A stretch of DNA of 24,000 bases, taken from NCBI GenBank assembly GCA_005116945.1, contig SWDH01000002.1, forward strand, positions 44,621-68,620, read 5' to 3'. Shown here in pieces: positions 5,535 to 21,682 of this stretch; position 1 is the first letter of the stretch; every line of letters starts with the position of its first letter. Both the position numbers and the translations under genes were made by a program. Source of the DNA: Nitrospira sp. GTDB taxonomy: Bacteria > Nitrospirota > Nitrospiria > Nitrospirales > Nitrospiraceae. Under the pieces are notes generated by a model. That model did no database searches, was not told the origin of the DNA, and saw only the letters and a program-made list of their open reading frames with translations.

Positions 5535-5881
5535 CGCGCCACACATTCAGACCGCAAGCACTACGACAGTGATCTAGCCACCTCACAACCGCATCAAGCA
5601 ACGAGCCTGGAATCGCCAGGTGCATCGAACCTGAACATCTGTCAAGCAAGTCTTCGACTCAAAGCGTCTCGGCGCATGACCACGCGGTCGATACCCTGAC
5701 GTGTCTCAATATATCCTAGCTTATCTTCTCCCGCACCTACACTTTGTAGGCACAATTGGTTCGAGCTCTAGTAAAGTCTCCACCACATACTAGAGCTTCC
5801 CCCAGTTCCATTCGCGCTTCAGACATATCATGATTCCTCGCTATTCCTACCTTGATGTCAATAGCAATAGGAGGGTTTGTT

Positions 5882-8617: not shown

Positions 8618-8636
8618 GCCGGAATGCAGAACAGGG

Positions 8637-8671
8637 AGCTGCGGCGGTCGCGAGCCGACCGTCGCAGCTCA
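8637..8671 (+). terminator. strong GC-rich hairpin after the cytochrome gene
   Basis: gagctgcg-g-cggtcg / cgagc loop / cgaccg-t-cgcagctc forms a 15-bp stem including one G.U pair, starting 20 nt after the stop at 8617. There is no U-tract. Confidence 0.5.
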
Positions 8672-8852
8672 AGTATGAGCACAGCTTCCCCTCTCTCAAT
8701 TTTCGTTGTGATATTCGTGCGTGACGGTGAGGGACTCGACGCTGCCTCACTACAGACATTGAGGCTGGCCCCGCTCGTCAGGCAGGCCGCGCGTCGCGAC
8801 GTTCGGTATAACGCAACGAATTGAGTGTGTTGAACGTCAACTTGGAAATCCC

Positions 8853-8899
8853 AACTGAATCCAATTGGATTCTATGCTGAATCAAAATAGATTCAGTTG
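8853..8899. promoter_or_regulatory. phased inverted-repeat array (candidate enhancer/UAS for a sigma-54 activator)
   Basis: GAATC, GATTC, GAATC and GATTC start at 8857, 8868, 8879 and 8890, exactly 11 bp apart. They are nested in a 47-bp imperfect palindrome, caactgaatc...gattcagttg. This contains the perfect 16-mer gaatccaattggattc (8857-8872) and ctgaatc-N6-gattcag (8877-8896). The centre lies about 136 bp upstream of the -24 element at 9011. A further small palindrome, gttga-acg-tcaac, lies at 8829-8841. Confidence 0.45.
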
Positions 8900-9010
8900 A
8901 GATCGTGCGGGTCATCTTGATCTGCCGTCGTCTTTCCTTTCTACTTCGTGAACCCTGCCAATTTTGAAGATTCTTAGGAAGGATTCCTCAAAGCCAGACA
9001 GAAAACAGGC

Positions 9011-9026
9011 TGGCACGCCTATTGCT
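9011..9026 (+). promoter_or_regulatory. sigma-54 (RpoN) -24/-12 promoter
   Basis: TGGCAC-gccta-TTGCT is an exact match to the TGGCAC-N5-TTGCW core with correct GG-to-GC spacing (12 nt). It faces the sigma-54 activator gene 455 nt downstream. Confidence 0.6.
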
Positions 9027-9480
9027 GTATGCCTGATCAAGACGCCATCAGGAGAGAGCAATACTTCCCGATCGACTCACCCCGCACGCGTGATCGGGAG
9101 CACCGGGAGAACACTGATCTGAATATATGTACTTGCCGCTGAAAACCGTGGCCTTCACAGCAAGATCATCATGAAATTCATTGAAGACAGTGTTTCAACT
9201 TCGAGGGTGTCCGCATATTCTTTTCTCGAGACGCGCTCCCAAGAACAACGATACGAGAAATGTAAGGAAAATTAGGCTGAAGCGTAGGACAGTTACTAGG
9301 GCCGTAAAATAAATTGCTATTATCAACCTAATGCTCTATGCGTATGCTCAATTGGGGGGGTTTTATATTATCAACAGAAAGGGCAATTAACTCATGATGC
9401 ATCTTCGTGATCGCCAGAGTGAACATTGACCCCCACGAGGTCTACGGTTTTGTGCAACTGACAGTCTGCCAGGGAGAATC

Positions 9481-10917
9481 ATGACAAGCGGCAAGGTCCT
9501 CGTTGTAGAAGATGACGAAGGGATTTGGGAGCTCCTGAAGGCCGCCTTGGAGCCTGAGTTTGAGCTCCTGATCACGTCTGTCCCTGACAAAGCACTGAGT
9601 CTTGTCACACACGAGTTACCCGATCTGGTGTTACTCGATTTGGGCCTCCCACCGGCTCCACGCGACCATAAAATTGGCATCCAACTGCTCAGGAATTTGA
9701 GAAAAGTGGCCCCTCGCATAAAGGTGGTTGTCTGCACAGGCTTGTCCGGGTATGAGGCGGCGAGCCACGCCATCAGCCTTGGCGCCCACGACGTCATCTA
9801 TAAACCCTTTTGTGTTGAAGCCCTCCAAGCCGTCGTGCGAAGAGTCTGTTGGATGGCTCACATCGATCAGCAGCAGGGCCGGAAGGTACCTGAGGATGAG
9901 CTCCTGGAAGAAATGGTCGGAACCAGTCCCGCCATGCGCAAGGTCTTCGAGATGGTCCGGAGGGTCAGCACAACCGACATGCCGGTGTTGATCACGGGGG
10001 AAACGGGAACGGGCAAGGAACTGACGGCCCGAGCAATTCATGACCGGAGCGACCGAAAGACGGGTCCGTTCGTGCCGATCAATTGCGGCGCCATTCCTGA
10101 AACATTACTGGAATCTGAACTCTACGGGCATGAACGGGGGGCCTTTACCGGAGCCCTGCAGCAGAAGAAAGGCAAGTTCGAGGCAGCGGCAGGCGGGACA
10201 TTGTTTCTGGATGAAGTCGGCGATCTCCTTCCCTCGCTCCAGGTCAAATTGCTCCGTTTTCTGCAGGAGGGAACCTTTGAACGGGTCGGCGGTCAGCAGA
10301 CCCTGCACCTCAACATTCGTGTGATCACCGCGACCAACATCGACCTTCAGGCAGCCATCTGTAAGAATATGTTTCGAGAGGACCTCTATTACCGGCTAGG
10401 CATGCTGCATATTCATCTCCCCCCGCTCCGGGAACGTGGCGAAGACACGCTGCTCATGGCGATGGTTTTTCTTAAGAGAGCCGCTGCCTCATCCCATGGA
10501 AAGCGAATACGAGGCTATACCCAAGAAGCCGTCGAAGCCATCCAATCCTACCAGTGGCCGGGCAATGTGCGGGAGTTAGGCAATAGGGTCAGGCGAGCCG
10601 TGGTCATGGCGGAGGGTCAGGAAATTACGCCCCAGGACCTGGGTCTGACCTGCGAGACCCTCCAATCAGCAAACGGTCTCGACTCCCTGAGGGCCGCGCA
10701 CCGCCGGATTGAAATGGAGCTGATCATGAAAGCAATGAGTGTGCATCAAGGGAATTTGAGCCGCGCAGCGCAAGAACTAGAAGTGTGCCGCTCGACGCTC
10801 TATCGAAAAATTCATGAATTCCACCTTGAAGAATTCGTGCTCTCAGCGAACCCTAACCGGTTTCCGCAGCCATTCCCAACTCGTGAGTCCCTCGATAGGA
10901 AGCCCTCAGATAGCTGA
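9481..10917 (+). CDS. sigma-54-dependent response regulator (NtrC/Fis-family enhancer-binding protein)
   Basis: GGGAGA precedes the ATG. The REC domain has VLVVEDDEG, the phospho-acceptor LLDLGLPP (Asp53), VVVCTG and IYKPF. The AAA+ domain has Walker A GETGTGKE, GAFTGA, Walker B LFLDEVG and the ESELFGHE-type ESELYGHERGAFTGA. The C-terminal Fis-type HTH is GNLSRAAQELEVCRSTLYRKI. No histidine kinase gene is present in the window. Confidence 0.92.
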   Translation: MTSGKVLVVEDDEGIWELLKAALEPEFELLITSVPDKALSLVTHELPDLVLLDLGLPPAPRDHKIGIQLLRNLRKVAPRIKVVVCTGLSGYEAASHAISLGAHDVIYKPFCVEALQAVVRRVCWMAHIDQQQGRKVPEDELLEEMVGTSPAMRKVFEMVRRVSTTDMPVLITGETGTGKELTARAIHDRSDRKTGPFVPINCGAIPETLLESELYGHERGAFTGALQQKKGKFEAAAGGTLFLDEVGDLLPSLQVKLLRFLQEGTFERVGGQQTLHLNIRVITATNIDLQAAICKNMFREDLYYRLGMLHIHLPPLRERGEDTLLMAMVFLKRAAASSHGKRIRGYTQEAVEAIQSYQWPGNVRELGNRVRRAVVMAEGQEITPQDLGLTCETLQSANGLDSLRAAHRRIEMELIMKAMSVHQGNLSRAAQELEVCRSTLYRKIHEFHLEEFVLSANPNRFPQPFPTRESLDRKPSDS

Positions 10918-11405
10918 CGCACCATCCGGGGACGGATTCCGTTCTCCAGCCTATGTCGAACCCGTCCTCAGCGTCAGCTTAAAGAAATTTAGGGTTCGCA
11001 TCATCAAAATTCACATCAGATCGTTTGAGTGCCCCCAGCACAATCAACATAGTATTTCGGTACCTTCTCTGTTTCTTCGCTGATCTATGTGGAATCATGG
11101 AAGGGTAGATCTAGCAGGCTCTGATCAAGAGCCAACCTGGATCTGTCTAGAAATGTGACAAAGCATAATGCGCCAGCGATGCTCATCGAGTGTACAAAAG
11201 TCTGGATACCACAGCATATAGTAGGGATTTCACCAACATCTTCTGTATTATCGGCTCACCTACCTTATTTTCCCCAAAATGCGAATGACGCGGCACCCTG
11301 GGACCGTATAGACATTAGACAGTCACGCGCGCTTGCTTCGATTCTCTGCCCTCCATCCCTCTTTTCAGCCAGATAATCCTTTATCTATCAATACCTTTTT
11401 CAATC

Positions 11406-11421
11406 AGGCACGCTAATTGAG
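11406..11421 (+). promoter_or_regulatory. weak candidate sigma-54-like promoter upstream of the repeat-protein operon
   Basis: aGGCACG-ctaa-TTGAg has a good -24 element and correct spacing, but -12 is TTGA rather than TTGC, so the conserved C is lost. No GAATC/GATTC array lies upstream of it. Confidence 0.25.
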
Positions 11422-11928
11422 TACAGCACAACCATGAGGCACGTGGGCGGTGTGGAACGTCGCTGGGAGTGTGGTGGCGGCGGAACTGGCGCGCCGAGCT
11501 TTCCGGCAAATACTGAGCTCGACCATGTCCAGTCAATCCGTCCTTTTGGTTTTCTCAGTTCACAGGGGTTCGGATGTTCCACCAGACAGGGTTCTGGGGA
11601 TCGATATGCCAGCCGGTTCACCAAATGAGAAGAAAAAAGATCGCTCTAAAAACAAGCAGGCAAAAAGTCAGGTCACTCCCGCGGTGCAGCAAGTTCACGT
11701 CGTGCTACGCGTTGACCTATGGGATGACCCCCCAAAGGACAATTCACAGAAAGAGGACGAAAACGATAGTGATGCGTACGTGGGCCATGCATGAGGGCAG
11801 GATCTCTGATGAAAAACTCATATCTAAACAACAGATGAAAGGAGGTGGAGGAGGAGGAATGAGAATGCGACCGAAAGCCAGACCGAGTCATAGCGAAGTG
11901 ATTACGCAACAGAAGAGGAGGAAGAACA

Positions 11929-12774
11929 ATGATTAAGAAAAGTATCATCTTCTCGCTCATGGCCGTGGTAGGCGCGCTGCCTGCCGTCGCGATGGCGGAT
12001 GTCGAAGTGCGAGCGGACGTCAATAAGCGAAAGGACATTCGGATCGTGGAGCGGATCGATATTACCAAACTAGTTCAGATCGATGCACGGGTCAACAGAC
12101 GGGTGCAGAAGGCTGCCGAATCTCAGACGCTCGTGAACCAAACGAATTTCGACAATGAGGTTTGCACCAATTGCGATGAGAAACGAGACATCATTGATAA
12201 TTCCGGAAGCGGAAGTTCTGGTGTCCTGAGCATCAATCAATCGGCGGGCAACATGAACAACCAAGGCAACGCCGTCAGTATCGCCGTCGATGTCCCTGAT
12301 AATGGTGGGCCGAGAATCCCGGGTGACCCTGATGAGGGGTTTGCCGATGCGCAGGCCCATGTGGATCAGAAAAATTTCGGCAACGTCGTCGAGACCGTCA
12401 ACATCCTGTTCCGGGACGCGCTCATTCGAAACTCCATCAACAACAACAGGGGCGTGGCGCATGTGAATCAAGCGCCGGGGAACATGGCTAACCAATCCAA
12501 CGCGTTCTCACTGGCAGTGTCGCTGACTGGTTCAGGCGGCGGCGTAGCTTTGGCGGAAGCCGATCTTGGCCAGGTGAATACAAGGAACATTGTCCGTGAA
12601 TCTGATTCTCAAGGTCGAGACCAGACGGATCCGGGGTTTGTCGGCATCAACAAGCGGGCCGATATCCTGGGATCCATTAATGGCAACACCGGCGTGGTCG
12701 GTGTGAATCAAAGCGCGGGGAACATGGCCAACCAAGCCAACGTAGTGTCGTTCGCATCCGCCGGAGTGAGATAG
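11929..12774 (+). CDS. secreted Asn/Gln/Gly repeat protein, Fap-type amyloid subunit-like (paralogue 1)
   Basis: Strong SD GAGGAGG precedes the ATG. Signal peptide: MIKKSIIFSLMAVVGALPAVAMA. There are three roughly 33-aa repeats at nt 12190-12288, 12421-12519 and 12664-12759. They read IIDNSGSGSSGVLSINQSAGNMNNQGNAVSIAV, LIRNSINNNRGVAHVNQAPGNMANQSNAFSLAV and ILGSINGNTGVVGVNQSAGNMANQANVVSFAS. A single CTNC motif is present. Confidence 0.8.
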   Translation: MIKKSIIFSLMAVVGALPAVAMADVEVRADVNKRKDIRIVERIDITKLVQIDARVNRRVQKAAESQTLVNQTNFDNEVCTNCDEKRDIIDNSGSGSSGVLSINQSAGNMNNQGNAVSIAVDVPDNGGPRIPGDPDEGFADAQAHVDQKNFGNVVETVNILFRDALIRNSINNNRGVAHVNQAPGNMANQSNAFSLAVSLTGSGGGVALAEADLGQVNTRNIVRESDSQGRDQTDPGFVGINKRADILGSINGNTGVVGVNQSAGNMANQANVVSFASAGVR

Positions 12775-12806
12775 GACAGCACTGGTCGCGAAAAGGAGGA
12801 ATAACA

Positions 12807-13673
12807 ATGGATATGCACAGACTGATGGGACGAGTCCTGTTGACCCTGCCGATGGTGGCGATGGCCATACCCATGCCGGCGCAGGCGTCGCTTGACCTGT
12901 TGGCGAGGATTACAAAGGAAAAGGATATCACGGTGACTCAAAGAGTTCAGATTGACAAGAATATCGACATCAGGGTGAGACTTAACGAAGATTATGCTGG
13001 GGCTGCGGAAGCCGATGCTGTAGCGAATCAACTCAACGAGGGTAATACTGTGGCAGGCAATATAGGTAACCAGGTACCTGGCCACGGTCCCTCCTATGGC
13101 ATCAATCGACATGCGCGGATCGCTGATTCGATTAATACGAACCAGGGTATCGTGGGGGTCAACCAAGACGTCGGCAATATGGTCAATCAGGCGAACGTGG
13201 TTGCGGTCGCCCTGACGACTAGCCCAAGCTCGGTCACAAACTCCCAGGCAGAGGCCGACCAGGTGAACAGAAGAAACGATGTGGTGCAGCGTGAGCACCT
13301 GGTACGAGGCCCCGATGGAGTACTTCTTGTGCCTCCAGATCGTAGTGCGACCATCGAGGATTCGGTCAACGGCAACTCCGGGGTTATCGGAGTCAATCAG
13401 AACTCCGGGAATATGAACAATCAACTGAACCAACTTGCCTTAGCGATAGGACAAGGTTCAAAGGTGGCGCTCTCCGAAGCCGCCTTGGGTCAGGTGAATA
13501 CAGGCAATAGGGTCTTAGAGGTTGCAACTATTCGGGAAGATCGAATCAGTGGGTCCGTCAATAATAACAGTGGAATCGTGGGCGTCAATCAGTCCAGCGG
13601 CAACATGAACAACCAGGCTTCCGTGGTCAGCATGGCGGTTCTGACGAGCCGTGTCGCGATTACGACACCGTAG
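12807..13673 (+). CDS. secreted Asn/Gln/Gly repeat protein, Fap-type amyloid subunit-like (paralogue 2)
   Basis: SD AAGGAGGA precedes the ATG. The signal peptide ends PMPAQA. The N-terminal module ITKEKDITVTQRVQIDKNIDIRV is paralogous to VNKRKDIRIVERIDITKLVQIDARV of paralogue 1. The three repeats are IADSINTNQGIVGVNQDVGNMVNQANVVAVAL, IEDSVNGNSGVIGVNQNSGNMNNQLNQLALAI and ISGSVNNNSGIVGVNQSSGNMNNQASVVSMAV. Confidence 0.8.
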   Translation: MDMHRLMGRVLLTLPMVAMAIPMPAQASLDLLARITKEKDITVTQRVQIDKNIDIRVRLNEDYAGAAEADAVANQLNEGNTVAGNIGNQVPGHGPSYGINRHARIADSINTNQGIVGVNQDVGNMVNQANVVAVALTTSPSSVTNSQAEADQVNRRNDVVQREHLVRGPDGVLLVPPDRSATIEDSVNGNSGVIGVNQNSGNMNNQLNQLALAIGQGSKVALSEAALGQVNTGNRVLEVATIREDRISGSVNNNSGIVGVNQSSGNMNNQASVVSMAVLTSRVAITTP

Positions 13674-13701
13674 GCGCGGACTGAGTTCGCTGTATGTCCT
13701 T

Positions 13702-13730
13702 TGCGCGGGGAGCGTGATGCTCCCCGCGCA
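13702..13730 (+). promoter_or_regulatory. intra-operon perfect stem-loop between repeat-protein genes 2 and 3
   Basis: tgcgcggggagc (13702-13713) pairs perfectly with gctccccgcgca (13719-13730) around a 5-nt loop, giving a 12-bp GC-rich stem. It lies 29 nt after the stop of paralogue 2 and 39 nt before the start of paralogue 3. There is no U-tract. Confidence 0.55.
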
Positions 13731-13768
13731 GGGAGGCACAGTACCCTGAAATGGGAGGCACGGTGAAG

Positions 13769-14524
13769 ATGTCAATAATTCTCCAGGGACTGGTGTGGTG
13801 GCTGGTGGGATTGTCGGTGGCCATCGCCCAGGTGCAGGACGGCGAAATAATCGCGCCACAGTCCGACAGCCTTGTTTCCCAAGGTGGGACAGGCGGGTTG
13901 GAGGCAGTCCATGCCGTGGTCAATGCGGCGGGAAGCAGTTCCAGCCAGGCTCTTGTGAGCCAGATTCAAATCGGCAATGTAATGGAAGAAGGACTGACAG
14001 CCAGTCTGGCTATTGTACGGGATTCCTTTCAGAACAATCGAGGAATCATCGGGGCCAATCAAAATTCTGGGAACCTGAACAATCAGGCCAACGTACATGT
14101 GATTGCCCACAACTCAGTCGGCCCGACGATCCAGCTGGAACATGCCGCGATCGAGCAGCGGCTTGAGGAGAACACGATCGTGACCAGCGGCACGGCGCGG
14201 GAAGATCGTATTCAGGACAGTTTTGGCGGAACAGTCGGGATTGTGGGCATCAATCAATCGGCCGGCAATCTCAACAATCAAGCGAATGTCATAGTGATCA
14301 CGCTCGGGATGGGTTCGGAGTTCGTGCCCTTGGAAGATTCGTCGCTGGGTGCGGTGAATTCCGGTAACAAGCTGATCCCGGGTCCACCGGGCCCGAAGTC
14401 GGACGTGATCCTCGATTCCTTCGCCGGGTTTCGCGGGTTGGCGCAGGTATCTCAATCAGCGGGTGATCTGAATTCTGTGAGCAACAAGATGAACATCTCC
14501 TTTTCAGCGATGACGTTGAAGTAG
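13769..14524 (+). CDS. secreted Asn/Gln/Gly repeat protein, Fap-type amyloid subunit-like (paralogue 3, divergent)
   Basis: GGGAGG at 13753-13758 lies 10 nt before the ATG at 13769. Signal: MSIILQGLVWWLVGLSVAIAQ. The repeats are VRDSFQNNRGIIGANQNSGNLNNQANVHVIA, IQDSFGGTVGIVGINQSAGNLNNQANVIVIT and a degenerate ILDSFAGFRGLAQVSQSAGDLNSVSNKMNISF. It lacks the KDI..I..RV N-terminal module of paralogues 1 and 2. Confidence 0.75.
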   Translation: MSIILQGLVWWLVGLSVAIAQVQDGEIIAPQSDSLVSQGGTGGLEAVHAVVNAAGSSSSQALVSQIQIGNVMEEGLTASLAIVRDSFQNNRGIIGANQNSGNLNNQANVHVIAHNSVGPTIQLEHAAIEQRLEENTIVTSGTAREDRIQDSFGGTVGIVGINQSAGNLNNQANVIVITLGMGSEFVPLEDSSLGAVNSGNKLIPGPPGPKSDVILDSFAGFRGLAQVSQSAGDLNSVSNKMNISFSAMTLK

Positions 14525-15234
14525 TGAGGCGCATGATGAAGATGATGAGGATAGGCGTATGGGTGGGAAGCGCGGTGGTGGCGGCCAATGTGGCCTTGCT
14601 TTCCTCTGCATGGGCTTCGTTCCCCTTCCCTCTTCCTGGCGGGACGACCATGGTGACGGCCCCGGTGAAGAGTTTCGTGGAATTGCGCTATAGGAATATG
14701 GTGCGGCAAGCGTATGACATCAGTTGCGGTGCAGCGGCGCTCGCAACCATCCTCGACTATTTTTATGACGAAACCTTCACGGAGCAGTCGGTGATGGACG
14801 ACATGACGCCGCTCGGCGACAAGGACAAGATCGAGAAAGAAGGATTCTCACTACTTGAGATGAAGCATTATGCGGAGAAGCTCGGCTATGTCTCAAACGG
14901 CTACCGGCTGGACGATGTGCAGCGGCTTGCAGAACTGCAAGTTCCGGTGATCGGCTTGGTGAATGCTCGAGGATACAACCACTTTGTCGTGATTAAGGGA
15001 GTCGTTGAGGACAAGGTCTATCTTGCCGATCCAGCCTTTGGGAACAGCACCAGGCCGGTGGACGGGTTCGACCAGGAATGGAACGGGATCATCCTCGTGG
15101 TCTTGCACCCCACAAAGGCAGGCAGCAGCACCTTTGCCATGGATGCGCGACCCTCTGCTCAGATGAATCAGCTCATTCAGATTTTGCCACGGCTCGCTCC
15201 GCCCTTCAACAACCGAGGACCAGGGGAATTTTAA
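14524..15234 (+). CDS. periplasmic stand-alone C39-family cysteine peptidase (FapD-like)
   Basis: The start overlaps the upstream stop (TAGTG); ATG 14533 or 14536 are alternatives. Sec signal: ...VAANVALLSSAWA. The C39 catalytic set is QAYDISCGAAALATIL (Cys68), YNHFVVIKG (His153) and YLADPAFG (Asp169). There is no ABC transporter portion. Confidence 0.85.
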   Translation: MRRMMKMMRIGVWVGSAVVAANVALLSSAWASFPFPLPGGTTMVTAPVKSFVELRYRNMVRQAYDISCGAAALATILDYFYDETFTEQSVMDDMTPLGDKDKIEKEGFSLLEMKHYAEKLGYVSNGYRLDDVQRLAELQVPVIGLVNARGYNHFVVIKGVVEDKVYLADPAFGNSTRPVDGFDQEWNGIILVVLHPTKAGSSTFAMDARPSAQMNQLIQILPRLAPPFNNRGPGEF

Positions 15235-15283
15235 CGTTTAGTCGTCCCATCATCATACGATAATACGAAAGAGGTGGCTTATC

Positions 15284-15760
15284 ATGTGGTCCAAACTCCT
15301 CACGGTCGCAGCACTGAGCTGGATGCTTGTTGTCCCCATTGCCAATGCCGACGGGACGGTCAGTGATCTCGCCCCGGTTGATGAGGATGAGTGGGGAATT
15401 CCACTGACGGACAACGAACTCGCTGACCTGCGAGGTGGATTCAACGGCCTGGCATTCAATATCGCGTTCTCAGGGTTCGTCGACAAGCTGGGCAACGGCT
15501 CCGGCAATCTGACGGTTGGGCAAAATGGGGCCATTGTGCCAGGGGTACCTCCGGACGTCACTGTCAAGGACGGTGAGGTTCGGATCAGTACCGGCATCGG
15601 CAACTTCCAGGGCGCCAACGGCATCTTCCAAATCGCACAGGTGCCGGGGAACTTCAACGTCGTCAACAACAACCTGTACGTGCAGATTGCGCTGATCAAT
15701 CTGATCGACCCGGGGACTCAAGTGCCAAACCTTGCGAGTCTCTTTGGAACACCGCGGTGA
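15284..15760 (+). CDS. small secreted protein with double-glycine-leader-like motif and one degenerate amyloid-type repeat (FapE-position gene)
   Basis: SD GAGGTGG lies 6 nt before the ATG. Sec signal: MWSKLLTVAALSWMLVVPIANA. This is followed by LTDNELADLRGG (nt 15404-15439). The C-terminal GANGIFQIAQVPGNFNVVNNNLYVQIAL (nt 15611-15694) resembles the G..G.NQ.AGN.NNQ.N core of the upstream subunits. Confidence 0.7.
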   Translation: MWSKLLTVAALSWMLVVPIANADGTVSDLAPVDEDEWGIPLTDNELADLRGGFNGLAFNIAFSGFVDKLGNGSGNLTVGQNGAIVPGVPPDVTVKDGEVRISTGIGNFQGANGIFQIAQVPGNFNVVNNNLYVQIALINLIDPGTQVPNLASLFGTPR

Positions 15761-16004
15761 CCGTTCGGCCCTCTAGTATGGTAGACGGTCTAAGCAGCAG
15801 ACAGATTGGCCCAGTCGGGACGGCATTTATTAGAAGTGCTGACTGGGTTTTGCCACGTGCCGACCATTCTCAGCCCCTGTGGGAAGATCAAGCTGTATTG
15901 AGACTATGCTATCGGCGTGGGGTTCTGTGACCATACCGATGGCCACATGCACTCCGAATACGCTAGGATCAGATCCGAGCTGGACATCCCAGCCCAGGTT
16001 TCGT

Positions 16005-17150
16005 ATGGGACGAGCGTGGTTGGGCCTTGCCCTCCTTGTCTGTACGATCTGTTCCACGGTATATGCCCAAGAGCCTCTGCCGCAGCCGCCAGAGGAACTT
16101 CCTGTCCCTCAACCTCCGATTACGAATGAACAGCCCCAGCCGGGTCCACGTGAACCTCAGCCGCTCGTCACTCCTGCATCACCGCAAGCTGCTCCCATCG
16201 GGGCCGAACCCGAGCGACCCAAGTCCCAAAAACCGATCGACCAACTGCTCCTCCAACGCGGCGCGATCTTGCTGCCCCCCGGATGGCTCCAAGTCGAACC
16301 GTCGTTCGATTATTTAAAGTTTTCTACCGATCGTCTGAATATCAACGGTCTCAGTCTCTTCGAAGCAATCGTCATCGGGGAAATCCGCGCGGACAAGGTG
16401 ACACGAGAGGTCGCCACAGCCGCGATCAATCTGCGCTACGGGCTGATGAATCGGCTCCAGATTGAGGCTCGCATACCCTATGTCTACCGGCACGATCGAG
16501 AGCTTCTCGCGGTCGGCACACAGAATGAAGCCGAGCGAAATGTCGACAATCAGGCGCTCGGCGATGTAGAAGGCTCTCTAGTCTGGCAGGCGTACCTTGG
16601 GAGCGACTCCTCACCAGCAGTGCTGCTTCGATTGCGGGGTCGGAGCCGGACCGGTAAGGATCCATTTACGATCCCGGTGGAGCAAATCCCTGTGCAAGGC
16701 GCCCAGGGCCAGGTACGCTCACAACTGACGGATGTGCCCACCGGCAACGGCTACTGGAGCGTCGCCCCTGGATTTACCATGGTGTGGCGAACCGACCCCG
16801 TCGTGCTCTTCGCAGGAGCCAACTACTCCATCAACCTCGAGCGTACGATCGGGGGACTGGGACGGTTGGAACCAGGGGATAATTGGGACATCTTCTTGGG
16901 GTTGAACTTCGCGGTGAGCGAGAAACTCGGCATCAACATGACGGCAGTTGACTCGAATTTTGCCACCACGCGAGTCAACGGGGTGAAGCAACCAAACACG
17001 GCGTTCAACAGCGGCGTCCTGTCGATAGGGACTTCGATTGTCCTCAGTTCAACGCGTACTCTACTCATCTCCGTCGGAAAAGGATTGACGGAAGAGTCGC
17101 CGGATTTTCAGTTCTCGATCAGCTTGCCGTTGACGTTTCATGTGTTTTAA
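16005..17150 (+). CDS. outer-membrane beta-barrel protein (FapF-like / MetA-pathway 'transporter' type) with Pro-rich N-terminal linker
   Basis: The best start is ATG 16005, which gives the signal MGRAWLGLALLVCTICSTVYAQ; the listed start at 15879 adds 42 non-signal residues. About 65 aa form a Pro/Gln-rich linker. Alternating amphipathic strands follow, and the C-terminus FSISLPLTFHVF ends in the aromatic residue typical of OM barrels. Confidence 0.75.
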   Translation: MGRAWLGLALLVCTICSTVYAQEPLPQPPEELPVPQPPITNEQPQPGPREPQPLVTPASPQAAPIGAEPERPKSQKPIDQLLLQRGAILLPPGWLQVEPSFDYLKFSTDRLNINGLSLFEAIVIGEIRADKVTREVATAAINLRYGLMNRLQIEARIPYVYRHDRELLAVGTQNEAERNVDNQALGDVEGSLVWQAYLGSDSSPAVLLRLRGRSRTGKDPFTIPVEQIPVQGAQGQVRSQLTDVPTGNGYWSVAPGFTMVWRTDPVVLFAGANYSINLERTIGGLGRLEPGDNWDIFLGLNFAVSEKLGINMTAVDSNFATTRVNGVKQPNTAFNSGVLSIGTSIVLSSTRTLLISVGKGLTEESPDFQFSISLPLTFHVF

Positions 17151-17185: not shown

Positions 17186-18223
17186 ATGAAGACCGTGACT
17201 GCGATCCGCGCGTTGCTGATGATCGCCCTTCTGTGTGTCACCGAATCGGTGCAGGGAGAAGAGTGGAAGCTGGTGAGATTCTCGTACAGCAGCGGCTGGG
17301 ATGCCTTGCCGGCCATCGTGGCAATCGAGCGAGGATTTTTTGCAAAGGAACAACTGGTTGTCAGCGGGTTGACCGCAACCTCGGCAGATGCCGTCGCAAA
17401 TTCGCTGGCTAATGGTTCGACGGATGTAGCGGTCCTGCCTCAACGGACGCTCTTGGCCCTGGCAGCGGTCCGGTTGCCGATGAGGATTGTGTCGATGAAC
17501 CATTGGGGGACCGAGATGGAGTTAGTGGTGCCGCCGGGGCAGGAGAAGGTGAAATCGCTCGCCGATTTAAAAGGCAGGACGATTGCCATCGGCAAAGCCT
17601 CGGAAGCCTACCCCGCCCTGATTCGCTTGCTGAACAAAGACAAATTGCGGCCAACGGACGTGATCATCAAGGATCTGCCGGTCGAGACGCTCACCCAGGT
17701 TTTTCGACAGAAGGACAGACTGGCCGACGCGGTCTTCGAGTCCAGACACTTTACCTCGGTGCTGCAGAAGACCAGCCAAGCGCGGGTGGTGCTTTCGGCG
17801 CACGATGTCACAGAGAAACTCGGCTATATCGGTGCCTCCCCGCTTGTCGTTCGGCAAGAGCTGATCGAGAAGGAGCCAAAAACCGTGCAGCAGTTTGTGA
17901 AGGGGTGGGTCAACGCTCTTCACTACATTCAACAGGACCCCGAAGATGCGGCCCGACTGCTCATGATTTTCTTTCACCGTCAAGGCGTCAACGCCGTGTC
18001 CGAAGAGATGACCAAGTCATGGGTGGCCATGACTCGCTATGACCGGTTCATCTGGACGACGACCGATATTACGGATGCGGAATACAACGGATGGGGCCTC
18101 AAGGAAGGCGGGCTGCTTAGCGCGGCCCCGAAACTCAACGAGCTTGTGGAAAACCGATTCGCTCGAGTGGCCGTGGACAGCATAGAAGTCTCTACCCGAG
18201 CAAAGGCCTCAGGGAAGCCGTAG
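17186..18223 (+). CDS. periplasmic substrate-binding protein, NMT1/THI5-SsuA/TauA-like (NitT/TauT family), orphan
   Basis: Signal: MKTVTAIRALLMIALLCVTESVQG. The fold-typical segments are GWDALPAIVAIERGFFAKEQL..., LKGRTIAIGKASEAY and GYIGASPLVVRQELIEKEPKTVQQFVKGW. No permease or ATPase gene is adjacent. Confidence 0.7.
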   Translation: MKTVTAIRALLMIALLCVTESVQGEEWKLVRFSYSSGWDALPAIVAIERGFFAKEQLVVSGLTATSADAVANSLANGSTDVAVLPQRTLLALAAVRLPMRIVSMNHWGTEMELVVPPGQEKVKSLADLKGRTIAIGKASEAYPALIRLLNKDKLRPTDVIIKDLPVETLTQVFRQKDRLADAVFESRHFTSVLQKTSQARVVLSAHDVTEKLGYIGASPLVVRQELIEKEPKTVQQFVKGWVNALHYIQQDPEDAARLLMIFFHRQGVNAVSEEMTKSWVAMTRYDRFIWTTTDITDAEYNGWGLKEGGLLSAAPKLNELVENRFARVAVDSIEVSTRAKASGKP

Positions 18224-18306
18224 GACTGACAGAAAGAGGACGCTCTCCGGTGCGAATCAGCTGGAGGGGGCACCGATGGAGCCGTCAGAGCTTCCGTTCT
18301 CATTCT

Positions 18307-20100
18307 ATGTACAACAACAGAATTCTTCCCTCTCGAGGACCTGCAGTCCTCCGTCTTGTCTTTGTCCTCGTTACCATCGCACTGGTCGGCTGCTCCGGCA
18401 GCCCGCAGCAGCGCTCGGGGAATCAACAGGCCTGCCTACCCGCGCATGATCGGCCTTCCTGTTTCTATGTGGAAGCTCTTGAGCAAAAAAATACGAAACT
18501 GATCATCTTCGTCCGTGGGGTCTTTGGGAGCGCAGCAACCACCTGGGGGAATCCGCGGAGGGAAGCGTTTTGGCCGGCGATGGTCGCGAAAGACCCGCAG
18601 TTTGCGGGCTACGACATTTACTTGATCAATTACCATACCCCTTACCTCGGAGAAGCTCCGGATGTGCATGAGACCGCTGGCAATGAGCTTGAACAGTTAT
18701 TGAGTCGGAAGATACTCGACAAGTATGACGAGATCTATTTTATCGCACATAGCATGGGTGGCCTTGTGACCAAGAGCCTGCTCACGCAGCTTAATCGAGG
18801 ACAAGATGTGGCTCTACTGCGTCGGGTCAAAGGGGTGGCGTATTTGTCCACACCGGCACAGGGAGCAGATGGTGCCGGCCTAGCCGCATGGTTAGCGCTC
18901 AATCCTCAGCTCGGGAACCTGGAGCGCGCACATCTCGGCACCTACATCGTACGTCTTGAGGATCAATGGATTCAGCTAATGGATAATCGAGACAAGGTCA
19001 AGGCCGAGTTTCCCCGAGTGTATTGTGCCTATGAAACGCGGAAGTCGGGCCCCGTATGGGTCGTGCCAAAAGAATTGGCGAGTTCGCGTTGTGATGGGCC
19101 GCTCTACCCCATGCCGTTTCATCATTTTGGAATGGCGAAACCCTCGCGGAGCGACGATGACCCGTATCGCTGGACCATGGGAAAAATCCTGGAGGCCGGA
19201 GTAAGCGAGGTAACGCGACGCAACGCTGCGGCGCTGTTGTGGTCGGCGGCAGCATCAGTCCATGCAGGAGACCAAGCTGCAGCACGTCGGGCCTACGATG
19301 AGTCCAGTGCGCTGTATGTGAAGCTGGGCGACCGGCAGGCACAGGCCAATGTGCTCCGCGGCTTGGGCGACTTGGAATCTTTACTCGGCCGCAATGAGGA
19401 AGCGCAGACCGCCTATACGGAGGCCCGCAGCCTCTACAGGGTTGTGGGGGATCGCCTGGGTGAAGCCAATGTACTCAACAGCCTAGGCCACTTGGAATCC
19501 AAGCTCGGCCGCATTGACGAGGCACGGACCGCCTACATGGAGGCCCGCAATCTGTATACAGCGATAAGAAGTCGCCTGGGTGAAGCCAATGTGCTCGTTG
19601 GCCTGGGGGACTTGGAGTCCCAGCTCGGCCGCACGGACGAGGCGCGGACCGCTTACACGGAGGCTCATAGCCTGTACAAGGCCGTGGGGAGTCGCCTGGG
19701 TGAAGCCAATGCGCTCGTCGGTCTAGGCCATTTGGAGTTCCAGCTCGGACGCAAGGACGAGGCGCGGACCGCCTACATGGAGGCCCACAATTTATTCAAG
19801 GCCGAGGGAGGTCGACTGGGTGAAGCCCATGTGCTTCGCGGCCTGGGCGACTTGGAGTTCCAGCTCGGCCGCACGGACAAGGCGCGAAACGCTTACACGG
19901 AGGCCCATAGCCTATACAAGGCCGTGGGGAGCCGCCTGGGTGAAGCTCATACACTTTTAAGCTCAGGACGGCTGGAGGCACTAATTAATCCGGAACTCGC
20001 GAGACAGCATTTCCACCAAGCTGCATCTATTTATGAGCAAATCGGTATGAACAAGTGGCGAGAGATCGCATTGAGTCACACCAAGGACCTCTCTCACTGA
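18307..20100 (+). CDS. lipoprotein: N-terminal alpha/beta-hydrolase (lipase/esterase-like, GxSxG) plus C-terminal 40-aa TPR-like repeat array
   Basis: The ATG at 18307 gives ...LVFVLVTIALVGCSG (lipobox). The nucleophile elbow is FIAHSMGGLV (Ser149). From about aa 325 there are six to seven 40-aa repeats of the type ARTAYTEAHSLYKAVGSRLGEANVLVGLGDLESQLGRTDE. Confidence 0.75.
   Translation: MYNNRILPSRGPAVLRLVFVLVTIALVGCSGSPQQRSGNQQACLPAHDRPSCFYVEALEQKNTKLIIFVRGVFGSAATTWGNPRREAFWPAMVAKDPQFAGYDIYLINYHTPYLGEAPDVHETAGNELEQLLSRKILDKYDEIYFIAHSMGGLVTKSLLTQLNRGQDVALLRRVKGVAYLSTPAQGADGAGLAAWLALNPQLGNLERAHLGTYIVRLEDQWIQLMDNRDKVKAEFPRVYCAYETRKSGPVWVVPKELASSRCDGPLYPMPFHHFGMAKPSRSDDDPYRWTMGKILEAGVSEVTRRNAAALLWSAAASVHAGDQAAARRAYDESSALYVKLGDRQAQANVLRGLGDLESLLGRNEEAQTAYTEARSLYRVVGDRLGEANVLNSLGHLESKLGRIDEARTAYMEARNLYTAIRSRLGEANVLVGLGDLESQLGRTDEARTAYTEAHSLYKAVGSRLGEANALVGLGHLEFQLGRKDEARTAYMEAHNLFKAEGGRLGEAHVLRGLGDLEFQLGRTDKARNAYTEAHSLYKAVGSRLGEAHTLLSSGRLEALINPELARQHFHQAASIYEQIGMNKWREIALSHTKDLSH
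19279..19977 (+). repeat. in-frame tandem 120-bp repeats (about six copies) encoding the TPR-like array
   Basis: Units such as ggtgaagccaatgtgctc...ggcctgggcgacttggagt[ct]ccagctcggccgcacggac[ga]aggcgcg[ga]accgc[ct]tacacggaggc recur every 120 nt, with long stretches of nucleotide identity. Confidence 0.8.
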
Positions 20101-20419: not shown

Positions 20420-21682
20420 TCACCCTGGCAGCGCCTGATACCAGCCGTTGGCTTGAGCCAATGATACCGGGCAATCGAATAACTGGCTGAGATTGGCTTC
20501 TGTGAGAAGAGATCGCTTCTCTCCATCTTGGAGAATTTTCCCTTGCTTCAAGAGCACCACACGCTCGACTTCCGGAGGGATCTCGTGAATGTGGTGCGTC
20601 ACCAGTAATAGGGTTTTTCCTTTCCGCATATGCGCCCGCACCAGGTCCAGGTAGTGAAACGTCGCCGTAAGGTCGAGTCCGCTGGTGGGTTCATCCAGCA
20701 CCAACACGCTCGGGTCATGCACCAGCGCACGGCCCAGCAAGCAGCGCCGTTGCTCGCCGGTCGACATCTCGGAGAATTTTCTGTCGATCAAGAACCCGAC
20801 ACCGAGTTCTTCCATCACGACACGGGCACGAGCAACCTGGGCATCGGTAAAATCTTGATGCCCGTAGATTCCAATGCTCGCATAGTAGCCTGACAACACG
20901 ACTTTCAATCCCGTCACATGTTCCATGTACTGATGCTGAAGGTCGTGCGACACCATGCCCAACCGTTTACGCACGTCCCAGACGTTCCACCACGCTTCGC
21001 CGAACACACCAATGGATGTCTCATCCTTGGGAAGCGAATGCACTTCACCGGACAGCATTTTAAGGATCGTCGACTTGCCTGCGCCATTGGGACCAAGGAT
21101 CGCCGTGTGAACCCCTGCTGTAAGCATGAAGGACAAGTCGACGAATACGCAGGCGTCACCCCGATACACTGTCGCGTTCTTGATGTCGAGGATTGGATAT
21201 GAACTAGTCGTAGAGACCGCCTGCGCGACGATCCCGCCGACAGCCTGACCAGCACGTCGAGACTGTTCAAGGCCGGCACGAGCCAGTGCATCCACACGTT
21301 CGTTATCCGGGTGGCCGGAGTGTCCCTTGACCCAGCGCCATTCAAGCGTGTGACCTGCAGCCAGGGCATCGAGGCGACGCCACAAATCCTCATTCTTGAC
21401 CGGCTCCTTCGTGGAAGTTCTCCAGCCTCGTTTCTTCCAGCTATGGATCCATTCGCTAATGCCTTTTTGCACATACTGCGAATCGGTGTAGACATGCGCT
21501 TCCACCGGCTCCGTAAGCGACTGCAAGGCCTCGATCACCGCAAGCAGCTCCATGCGGTTGTTCGTCGTCGCCGGCTCCCCACCGCACAGTTCCGTTTCGA
21601 CAATGCCGCTACGCAACAGAGCGCCCCAGCCACCTGGTCCGGGATTCCCACTGCAAGCACCATCTGTGTAAATCTCGATCAT
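20420..21682 (-). CDS. rnhA: RNase HI domain fused in one ORF to a soluble ABC-type ATPase domain
   Basis: aa 1 to about 142 are RNase HI: [22 protein letters not shown]...[15 protein letters not shown]...VYTDSQYV...[18 protein letters not shown]. After the linker [25 protein letters not shown] comes an ABC ATPase with Walker [10 protein letters not shown], signature MSTGEQRR, Walker [13 protein letters not shown] and H-loop LVTHH. No stop codon separates the two halves. The symbol applies to the N-terminal half only. Confidence 0.75.

Follow-up and report, generated by a model that had tools for sequence, protein, structure and literature searches.

Does the cluster of six genes at positions 11929-17150 of a 24,000-nucleotide stretch of Nitrospira sp. 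DNA (contig SWDH01000002.1; the whole stretch is hereafter called the window) encode a machine for functional amyloid related to the Fap system of Pseudomonas, and in what respects does it depart from that system? On the strength of sequence homology, we consider it about 85% probable that the cluster is a chromosomal Fap-type functional-amyloid (extracellular fibre) operon of Nitrospira, belonging to a divergent Fap clade. The homology is significant and reciprocal for four of the five canonical component types, and by analogy we infer that the three putative fibre subunits (S1, S2 and S3) would form amyloid. A first-pass annotation of the same DNA had described an uncharacterised Fap variant, and this description is upheld: the clade is distinct and its parts list is different, with a third class of subunit, a minimal FapE that bears a canonical double-glycine leader, the gene of a binding protein linked to the cluster and, in Nitrospira, an outer-membrane barrel free of the coiled coil.

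Gene layout and relation to the Pseudomonas fap operon

The six open reading frames (ORFs) are co-directional on the + strand, in the order S1, S2, S3, D, E, F, at the coordinates where the first-pass annotation had placed them:

11929-12774, + strand: S1, FapB/C-type subunit of 281 amino acids, with a Sec signal, a charged N-terminal segment, a CxNC motif and three imperfect repeats
12807-13673, + strand: S2, FapB/C-type subunit of 288 amino acids, with three imperfect repeats (NCBIfam FapC, 2.9e-16)
13769-14524, + strand (ORF from 13751, 257 amino acids): S3, FapB/C-type subunit of 251 amino acids, likely start ATG 13769
14524-15234, + strand: D, periplasmic stand-alone C39 cysteine peptidase of 236 amino acids, a FapD homologue, likely start ATG 14533
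15284-15760, + strand: E, short FapE-like secreted protein of 158 amino acids, with a Sec signal (residues 1-22, approximately), a propeptide and a mature part
15404-15439, + strand: codons of the double-glycine leader of E, L41-T-D-N-E-L-A-D-L-R-G-G52, then F
16005-17150, + strand (ORF from 15879): F, FapF-type outer-membrane barrel of 381 amino acids, likely start ATG 16005, ending in LTFHVF

By inspection, an N-terminal hydrophobic segment and an AxA-type site are present in all six products (AMA/D, AQA/S, AIA/Q, AWA/S, ANA/D and VYA/Q, from S1 to F), in keeping with the Sec signals previously ascribed to them. The Shine-Dalgarno sequences of S1 (GAGGAGG), S2 (AAGGAGG), S3 (GGGAGG) and E (AGAGGTGG) are strong, as had been stated for the whole cluster, but that of D is moderate and that of F weak (by inspection of start codons and upstream sequence); likewise most junctions are short (32, 77-95, about 8 and 49 nucleotides), as described, but the gap between E and F is 244 nucleotides, assuming that F starts at 16005. 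The flanks consist of ordinary chromosomal genes (rluE, aroC, aspS and those of a YpfJ-type peptidase and a MotB/OmpA-like protein), and F is 100% identical to E8D41_00490, annotated as a hypothetical protein in a Nitrospira sp. metagenome-assembled genome (MAG).

As the canonical reference, 80 Pseudomonas fap loci were used, among them the textbook fapABCDEF operon L042, and hidden Markov models (HMMs) were built from these operons; loci of the clade itself were gathered from the neighbourhoods of barrel homologues and from a systematic BLAST table, the retrieved loci being designated by L-numbers. Each Pseudomonas-built HMM ranks the syntenic window gene first among all ORFs of the window, with the exception of that for FapA, which finds nothing. 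With NCBIfam E-values of 1e-12 to 4e-45, the similarity to Fap greatly exceeds what chance would give. The window proteins share 40.5% (FapD) and 27% (FapF) identity with their Pseudomonas counterparts, figures comparable to the 39% (FapD) and 32% (FapF) reported for Fap systems accepted outside Pseudomonas (PMC3792158). The fapB-fapC-fapD-fapE-fapF order proposed by the first-pass annotation is one on which profile, structural and synteny evidence agree.

Putative fibre subunits

S1, S2 and S3 are mutually 31-36% identical and are indeed paralogous repeat proteins: each contains three imperfect copies of the core G-[VI]-[VI]-G-[VI]-N-Q-S-A-G-N-[ML]-N-N-Q-A-N, those of S1 beginning at about G98, G175 and G255, and the third repeat of S3 being degenerate. 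NCBIfam models match S1 (FapC 1.6e-15, FapB 6.8e-12) and S3 (FapB 8.8e-14, FapC 1.1e-14) as well as S2, so that the FapB/FapC profile search suggested earlier returned all three subunits, at 6.8e-12 to 2.9e-16, below the equivalog cutoffs. The Pfam family FapBC (PF27129) is precomputed on S1, on S2 and on every listed relative of S1. The repeats of S2 are in register with FapC as determined by cryo-electron microscopy (9nqd and 9u4u, residue-level alignment), the aligned segment reading SaNNssGnvGVNvaaGqgNqQkNnlAi versus SVNGNSGVIGVNQNSGNMNNQLNQLALAI; the repeat alignment given in the first-pass annotation holds residue by residue. The AlphaFold2 model of S1 (mean predicted local distance difference test score, pLDDT, 66) is all-beta with three repeated blocks, and its best PDB matches in Foldseek are the FapC fibrils 9u4u (E 7e-5) and 9nqd; confidence in the model is moderate.

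The two cysteines of the CxNC motif (C79 and C82; window 12163-12174), located ahead of repeat 1, are invariant in all 51 aligned S1 orthologues, and the motif is confined to S1, cysteines being absent from S2 and S3. Across the clade, conservation is highest in S1 and lowest in S3 (72% identity to the S3 orthologue of L010). Assignment of FapB or FapC roles to individual subunits was tried and rejected: S2 leans toward FapC (1e-19 with the Pseudomonas-only FapC HMM, making it the most FapC-like of the three) and S3 toward FapB (best match of the Pseudomonas FapB HMM, 2e-13), the HMM ratios being too close.

Outer-membrane barrel and C39 peptidase

In F, a Sec signal is followed by a Pro-rich linker (about 55 amino acids), a short helix (IDQLLLQ) and the barrel. 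A phmmer comparison with the PDB finds FapF (5o67/5o65, E 4e-31, with the PTGNG motif kept), and NCBIfam gives FapF at 1e-38 (133 bits) and FilC at 2.5e-11 (43.5 bits). The AlphaFold2 model has a mean pLDDT of 83.5, rising above 90 in the barrel, and shows a helix (residues 78-84) just ahead of the barrel. Its top 18 PDB matches in Foldseek are all FapF (template modelling, TM, scores of 0.78-0.86; root-mean-square deviation from 2.8 Å), the next structural neighbour being the COG4313 channel 4rl8. The first-pass annotation had the length and the ending of this protein right, and the structure that it expected is found as regards the FapF fold and the helix ahead of the barrel, the position of the helix being judged from secondary structure. 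It had also described a Pro-rich N-terminus in place of a coiled coil, and in the AlphaFold2 model no helix lies between the signal peptide and residue 77, a segment that is Pro-rich and of low pLDDT. Alphaproteobacterial members of the clade are annotated as coiled-coil (SlyX) proteins.

D matches Pfam Peptidase_C39 (2.4e-23) and, in NCBIfam, FapD (4e-45, 154 bits) and FilB (3e-35, 122 bits); both the FapD and the FapF search proposed earlier were thus productive, at levels below the equivalog cutoffs. The catalytic Cys (FSCGAAALATIL), His (RGYNHFVV) and Asp (ADP) all align with those of FapD, as expected of the intact catalytic set reported for this peptidase. D is a single-domain protein with a signal sequence, and the cluster contains no gene for an ATP-binding cassette (ABC) transporter.

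A double-glycine leader in the FapE-like protein

E belongs to a small family that is unannotated throughout, comprising 49 close homologues and, in an exhaustive profile search, 195 representatives. Profile-profile comparison (hhalign) of this family with canonical FapE gives a probability of 85% (63%, E 7e-5, with signal peptides removed), and at most 6% in controls with FapA, FapB, FapC and FapD. Among all ORFs of the window, E ranks first with the Pseudomonas FapE HMM, and curated FapE is the only recurrent NCBIfam match of the members of the family, weak as it is (3e-4 to 0.09). The motifs xDxELxxLRGxF and GNxNxVNN are common to E and FapE. Because of the profile-profile match and the position between D and F, E is probably a shortened FapE. 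The degenerate repeat copy that the first-pass annotation saw in this protein corresponds to a C-terminal motif resembling the FapB/FapC repeat (GIFQIAQVPGNFNVVNNNLYVQIAL), but the double-glycine leader was overlooked.

Double-glycine leaders recognised by C39 peptidases have the consensus LSxxELxxIxGG, which reportedly goes back to Dirix 2004 (cited in PMC5557850). The leader of E coincides with it at positions -12, -11, -8, -7, -4, -2 and -1, and the logo of the E family reads L(-12), S/T(-11), D(-10), E(-8), M/L(-7), L/I(-4), R(-3), G(-2), G(-1), followed by F or Y. Of 191 family members, 78 carry the motif in a strict pattern and 37 in a loose one; R50 and G51 of E are invariant in the family alignment, and among the proteins of the window operon the motif is restricted to E. 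Members of the family have weak matches to GG-leader peptide families, namely bacteriocin, ribosomally synthesized and post-translationally modified peptide (RiPP) and lanthipeptide leader models. At the homologous site, Pseudomonas FapE has ...AELAxLRGR-F in 69 of 70 sequences. Since E bears a canonical double-glycine leader, it is predicted to be a substrate of D, cut after G52. In Pseudomonas, FapE alone is N-terminally processed and has been proposed by Rouse et al. as the substrate of FapD, and canonical C39 sites are absent from the Fap proteins (PMC5557850); a review of December 2025 states that FapD is still "thought to" process FapE (PMC12822426).

Distribution of the clade and absence of FapA

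The genome scan employed patterns tuned to the clade and therefore samples this clade alone, giving no measure of kinship to canonical Fap or Fil. The conserved order is sigma-54 regulator, S1, S2, an optional extra copy of the S2 type, S3, D, E and F; this architecture was found in Nitrospira, Methylomirabilota, Tectomicrobia and several alphaproteobacterial orders, and gene order is kept across at least five phylum-level lineages, with S1, S2 and S3 forming position-specific orthologue groups. A variant from Desulfobacterota MAGs (L029, L031, L034-L037 and L040) is rearranged as S-D-E-S-F, with one or more subunits in the first position; in most of these loci the barrel has 28-31% identity to F of the window (39% in L029), and a receiver domain is often missing from the sigma-54 activators beside them. 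The nearest relatives in the genome collection are other Nitrospira MAGs. L010, the closest species, has the full order S1-S2-S3-D-E-F followed by the NMT1-like gene described below, at 71-80% protein identity, and its leader DNA cannot be aligned with that of the window except around the ribosome-binding site, a combination that indicates purifying selection on the proteins.

The first-pass annotation recognised no FapA, and rightly so, as a search of all window ORFs of at least 40 amino acids with the FapA HMM from Pseudomonas gave no match (best E 0.69). FapA is dispensable and is often absent from accepted Fap operons (PMC3792158). A 114-amino-acid ORF at 11450-11794, which one metagenome annotation calls a gene, was considered as FapA and rejected for want of any family match; for this reason, and because the region is not conserved in L010, it is treated as spurious. 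Two relatives have an additional ORF between E and F (193 amino acids in L004, 223 in L006), which was likewise considered as a missing component and rejected: the two ORFs are unrelated to each other and match no Fap model, and are therefore taken to be lineage-specific insertions.

In 2013 Dueholm and colleagues found Fap to be restricted to Beta-, Gamma- and Deltaproteobacteria (PMC3792158); a 2018 review noted co-localised fapD and fapF homologues in five further phyla, and a 2025 screen of GTDB r226 reported Fap operons in Desulfobacterota, Nitrospirota and Bacillota (PMC12822426). Of the 1602 clusters in this screen, more than 90% have the canonical composition fapABCDEF or fapBCDEF, and subunits with three repeats are near-universal (PMC12822426). 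The belief expressed in the first-pass annotation, that Fap operons had been described only in Proteobacteria, is outdated by this screen, and since Nitrospirota are included in it, the window is not the first Fap system outside the Proteobacteria. No paper devoted to Fap or functional amyloid in Nitrospira specifically came up in full-text literature searches, and in the literature covered the phylum has a one-line mention in a survey.

Regulation and the upstream leader

Two features upstream of S1 bear on regulation:

9481-10917, + strand: sigma-54-dependent response regulator, with receiver, AAA+ and Fis helix-turn-helix domains (Pfam Sigma54_activat 2e-70, Response_reg, HTH_8)
11406-11421, + strand: candidate -24/-12 element AGGCACGCTAATTGAG, degenerate and without the C of the -12 part, the best in the 1-kb leader

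The best NCBIfam model for the regulator is the PEP-CTERM-box regulator TIGR02915 (483 bits, versus a cutoff of 502.6). The activator next to fapF in Pseudomonas locus L042 shares 47% identity with the regulator. Homologous regulators adjoin the cluster in L004, L006/L012, L011, L029, L031, L032, L037 and L040, and in 57 of 66 Pseudomonas loci a sigma-54 activator directly follows fapF. The adjacent activator, which had been listed among the departures from the canonical system, is instead a canonical feature: in P. fluorescens an RpoN -24/-12 promoter has been mapped for fapA-E, which depends on BrfA, a sigma-54 activator encoded next to it (PMC9207406). By analogy, the regulator at 9481-10917 is likely to be the activator of the operon, the counterpart of BrfA. 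In relatives of the cluster, -24/-12 sites lie 270-590 nucleotides upstream of S1 (nine in 16 regions, versus about 0.17 expected per region).

The leader between the regulator and S1 (10918-11928) is unusually long, at about 1 kb, with a lower GC content of 0.495 versus about 0.55; related loci have comparably long leaders (730-900 nucleotides), and Rfam gave no match at E <= 1 for positions 8600-12000. It contains a short ORF (MRMRPKARPSHSEVITQQKRRKNND) with a strong Shine-Dalgarno sequence, the end of which overlaps the start of S1 and the sequence of which is not kept in L010. The sole perfect match (12/12) to the -24/-12 consensus in the window, TGGCACGCCTATTGCT at 9011-9026 (+ strand), is located 455 nucleotides upstream of the regulator; it may be the promoter of the regulator, which would then be autoregulated, or of an unannotated transcript. 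In L006, from another Nitrospira, the 223-amino-acid ORF at 8052-8723 (+ strand) has a faint match to a PEP-CTERM flocculation protein (PepA, E 0.1). A regulatory tie between amyloid and PEP-CTERM/exopolysaccharide floc systems is hinted at, too weakly to be claimed.

An NMT1-like binding protein and other neighbouring genes

One further gene accompanies the cluster on its downstream side:

17186-18223, + strand: NMT1/SsuA-like periplasmic solute-binding protein, beginning 35 nucleotides after F (Pfam NMT1, 1.4e-18)

The six-gene extent given by the first-pass annotation is correct for the + strand genes that it lists but one gene short, as the NMT1-like gene travels with the cluster. Its product matches the SsuA family model TIGR01728 at 3.6e-30, below the cutoff, and the TauA and SsuA structures are distant relatives. 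The gene adjoins the cluster in 12 loci of four lineages (Nitrospira, Tectomicrobia, Methylomirabilota and Alphaproteobacteria), homologues of 50-80% identity being found in L004 (10322-11413), L006/L012, L010 (6216-7250), L011, L013 (10282-11289), L017, L020, L025, L028 and L032 (8033-9040). It is co-directional, lying after F in the window and in L010 and after E in L013 and L028, and is not adjoined by genes for a cognate ABC permease or ATPase. It is absent from all 80 Pseudomonas fap loci and also from the Sphingomonadales members of the clade. From these sequence comparisons the NMT1-like protein appears to be a clade-specific conserved accessory that often accompanies the cluster. Its conservation (50-80% identity) exceeds that of the Fap proteins themselves, and in L004 its gene lies 2 nucleotides from a sigma-54 activator that has no receiver domain.

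Beginning 27 nucleotides past the NMT1-like gene, a 616-amino-acid protein (18250-20100, + strand) combines an alpha/beta-hydrolase-like N-terminus (AHSMGG, of the GHSMGG type) with many tetratricopeptide repeats; it is beside the cluster in no related locus. A secreted protein of 921 amino acids (5852-8617, + strand) contains YVTN beta-propeller repeats and a segment resembling di-haem cytochrome c peroxidase. Its orthologue in L010 (7338-9524, 78% identity) is on the opposite side of the cluster, after the NMT1-like gene, which indicates a local rearrangement between the two Nitrospira species. On the - strand, a 420-amino-acid ORF (20420-21682) reads as RNase HI in residues 2-143, with a score exceeding the NCBIfam cutoff, and continues in the same frame into an ABC-type ATPase domain (residues 164-411, approximately). 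The ORF may be a genuine fusion or the result of a missed start or frameshift.

Weighing of the evidence and alternatives

Several results weigh against a Fap-type amyloid operon. All scores are far below the NCBIfam equivalog cutoffs (in bits, FapC 58-60 versus 195, FapB 45-52 versus 190, FapD 154 versus 330, FapE 12.5 versus 250 and FapF 133 versus 700), and the proteins are therefore distant relatives whose function may have shifted. The match of the S1 model to the FapC fibrils has low TM scores (0.23/0.39) and a moderate pLDDT. F has no coiled coil, as judged by the secondary structure of the AlphaFold2 model, and in Pseudomonas the coiled coil of FapF is essential for trimerisation and secretion (PMC6173800). 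As a single sequence, E is weakly similar to FapE (E-value 0.014 with the Pseudomonas HMM and 0.06 with NCBIfam). Curated GG-leader HMMs match weakly in four of ten 30-amino-acid propeptide fragments and not in that of the window E, and because of this weak support we infer the cleavage of E rather than assert it. Upstream of S1 in the window there is no GG-N10-GC site scoring at least 9/12.

As an alternative, Fap-related export could serve non-amyloid surface fibres or adhesins, like the putative Fil pilus of Acinetobacter, an explanation that we regard as unlikely: D does match FilB and F does match FilC, and every Fap score is under its equivalog cutoff, but Fap outscores Fil for both D (154 versus 122 bits) and F (133 versus 43 bits), and the three-repeat hallmark, the register with the cryo-electron microscopy structure of FapC and the FapC fibrils at the top of the Foldseek results all argue for Fap subunits. 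It is much less probable that F and the NMT1-like protein constitute an uptake module of the COG4313/Phenol_MetA_deg kind that happens to lie beside unrelated secreted repeat proteins. F exceeds the Pfam gathering score of Phenol_MetA_deg (25.1 versus 22), the COG4313 channel 4rl8 follows FapF among its structural neighbours, and in many loci the genes of the binding protein and the barrel are closely linked; yet the similarity to FapF is far stronger (E 2e-21 versus 1e-11; TM 0.81-0.86 versus 0.70-0.73), all loci of the clade for which sequence was available combine the barrel with a C39 peptidase and FapBC subunits, including those of Sphingomonadales that have no NMT1-like gene, ABC permease and ATPase genes are not adjacent, and in L013 and L028 the NMT1-like gene follows E on the strand of the subunits while the barrel is on the opposite strand.

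The leader of E could also be read as that of a signal or toxin precursor, with D and E as the core of a bacteriocin- or RiPP-like peptide export system. The canonical double-glycine leader and the weak matches of the E family to bacteriocin, RiPP and lanthipeptide leader models would fit such a function, which nevertheless seems barely credible in view of the missing ABC transporter domain, the Sec signal of D and its best match to FapD, the Sec signal that precedes the GG leader of E and the specific match of E to FapE, and the three FapBC subunits and FapF barrel conserved alongside.

Proposed mechanism and significance

Assuming that the cluster is a Fap-type amyloid operon, the following steps can be proposed, all of them carried over from the Pseudomonas system, the window itself showing homology and architecture. 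The neighbouring sigma-54 response regulator would turn on transcription, as BrfA and RpoN do for P. fluorescens fapA-E, and all products would cross the inner membrane via Sec. F would form a 12-stranded FapF-like barrel in the outer membrane, gated by its short N-terminal helix. In the periplasm, D would cut the double-glycine leader off E after Gly52, licensing secretion, and mature E might act at the cell surface as an anchor or initiator. S1, S2 and S3 would be exported unfolded through F, and outside the cell the three repeats of each subunit would stack as beta-arches into cross-beta fibrils, with the roles of nucleator, major and minor subunit possibly divided among the three conserved paralogues. 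The fibres would serve as matrix and provide cohesion for Nitrospira microcolonies.

In wastewater treatment, drinking-water filters and soils, nitrite is oxidised mainly by Nitrospira, which grow as very cohesive microcolonies. A machine for amyloid fibres would be a concrete candidate for the source of this cohesion. For the amyloid field, the clade constitutes a natural comparison set, having three subunits, no FapA and, in Nitrospira, a barrel without a coiled coil. Which protein FapD cleaves, and at which site, has been a question since 2017, and the leader of E gives a specific prediction that is transferable by alignment to Pseudomonas FapE; the NMT1-like protein could reveal how secretion is chaperoned or regulated. 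A bolder proposal, which we hold to be doubtful, is that the clade represents a distinct, ancient "type II" Fap lineage spanning at least five phylum-level groups and defined by three subunits, a minimal GG-leader FapE and an obligatory NMT1-like protein that replaces FapA as a chaperone or acts as a ligand-sensing gate. If this were true, the FapD-FapE step would be a bacteriocin-style leader processing moved to the periplasm, the site cut by FapD would directly follow ...LRGG (in Pseudomonas FapE, by homology, ...LRGR), and nitrifiers would couple the secretion of amyloid in their biofilms to a small-molecule cue.

Comparison with known systems

The COG4313/Phenol_MetA_deg channels (4rl8) share the barrel superfamily of F, which is above the gathering score of Pfam PF13557; channels of the COG4313 type take up hydrophobic molecules, and neither C39 peptidases nor repeat subunits accompany them (PMC6173800). 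With the double-glycine leaders of bacteriocins, the leader of E has the consensus positions in common, and in both cases the C39 peptidase is encoded beside its (predicted) substrate. The C39 domain of bacteriocin ABC exporters is fused to a cytoplasmic transporter, whereas D is free and periplasmic; the leader of E follows a Sec signal and would therefore be exposed in the periplasm, and the product is predicted to be a fibre-associated protein of 106 amino acids rather than a bacteriocin.

Curli are a functional analogue, having subunits with imperfect N/Q/G-rich repeats that are exported by Sec, leave the cell unfolded through an outer-membrane channel of their own and are nucleated on the cell surface, but there is no homology: CsgG is a nonamer whereas F has the fold of a 12-strand monomeric barrel, curli have no C39 peptidase, and the structural match between the CsgA fibril and the S1 model is non-significant (E 0.32). 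No Csg family is found among the Pfam and NCBIfam matches of the scanned window ORFs, in agreement with the lack of CsgE, CsgF and CsgG noted in the first-pass annotation. The putative Fil pilus of Acinetobacter, compared through the NCBIfam FilB and FilC models alone, resembles the window cluster in that a stand-alone C39 peptidase and a FapF-related barrel are encoded together, and differs in that the window subunits are of the FapB/FapC type; the cutoffs of these models are far from reached (FilB 122 bits versus 475, FilC 43.5 versus 630).

The closest known system is Fap of Pseudomonas, which has the same order of subunits, C39 peptidase, FapE-type protein and barrel, three imperfect N/Q/G-rich repeats per subunit in the same register, Sec export, a periplasmic C39 peptidase with its catalytic Cys, a 12-strand barrel of the FapF fold with PTGNG and a short preceding helix, and an adjacent sigma-54 activator (BrfA in P. 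fluorescens). Pseudomonas has FapB and FapC, whereas the clade of the window has three orthologue groups of subunits and sometimes a fourth subunit; the window cluster lacks FapA, the loss of which is the commonest variation among canonical systems too. The FapE-type protein has 158 amino acids and a leader ending in ...LRGG, versus about 250 amino acids and ...LRGR in Pseudomonas, and the Nitrospira barrel has a Pro-rich linker and no coiled coil, unlike Pseudomonas FapF. The cysteine motif of S1 (CxNC) precedes repeat 1, whereas Pseudomonas FapC has a C-terminal CxxC (GCTQC in L042). Finally, an NMT1-like binding protein is linked to the window cluster and not to Pseudomonas fap, and the host belongs to a different phylum, the Nitrospirota.

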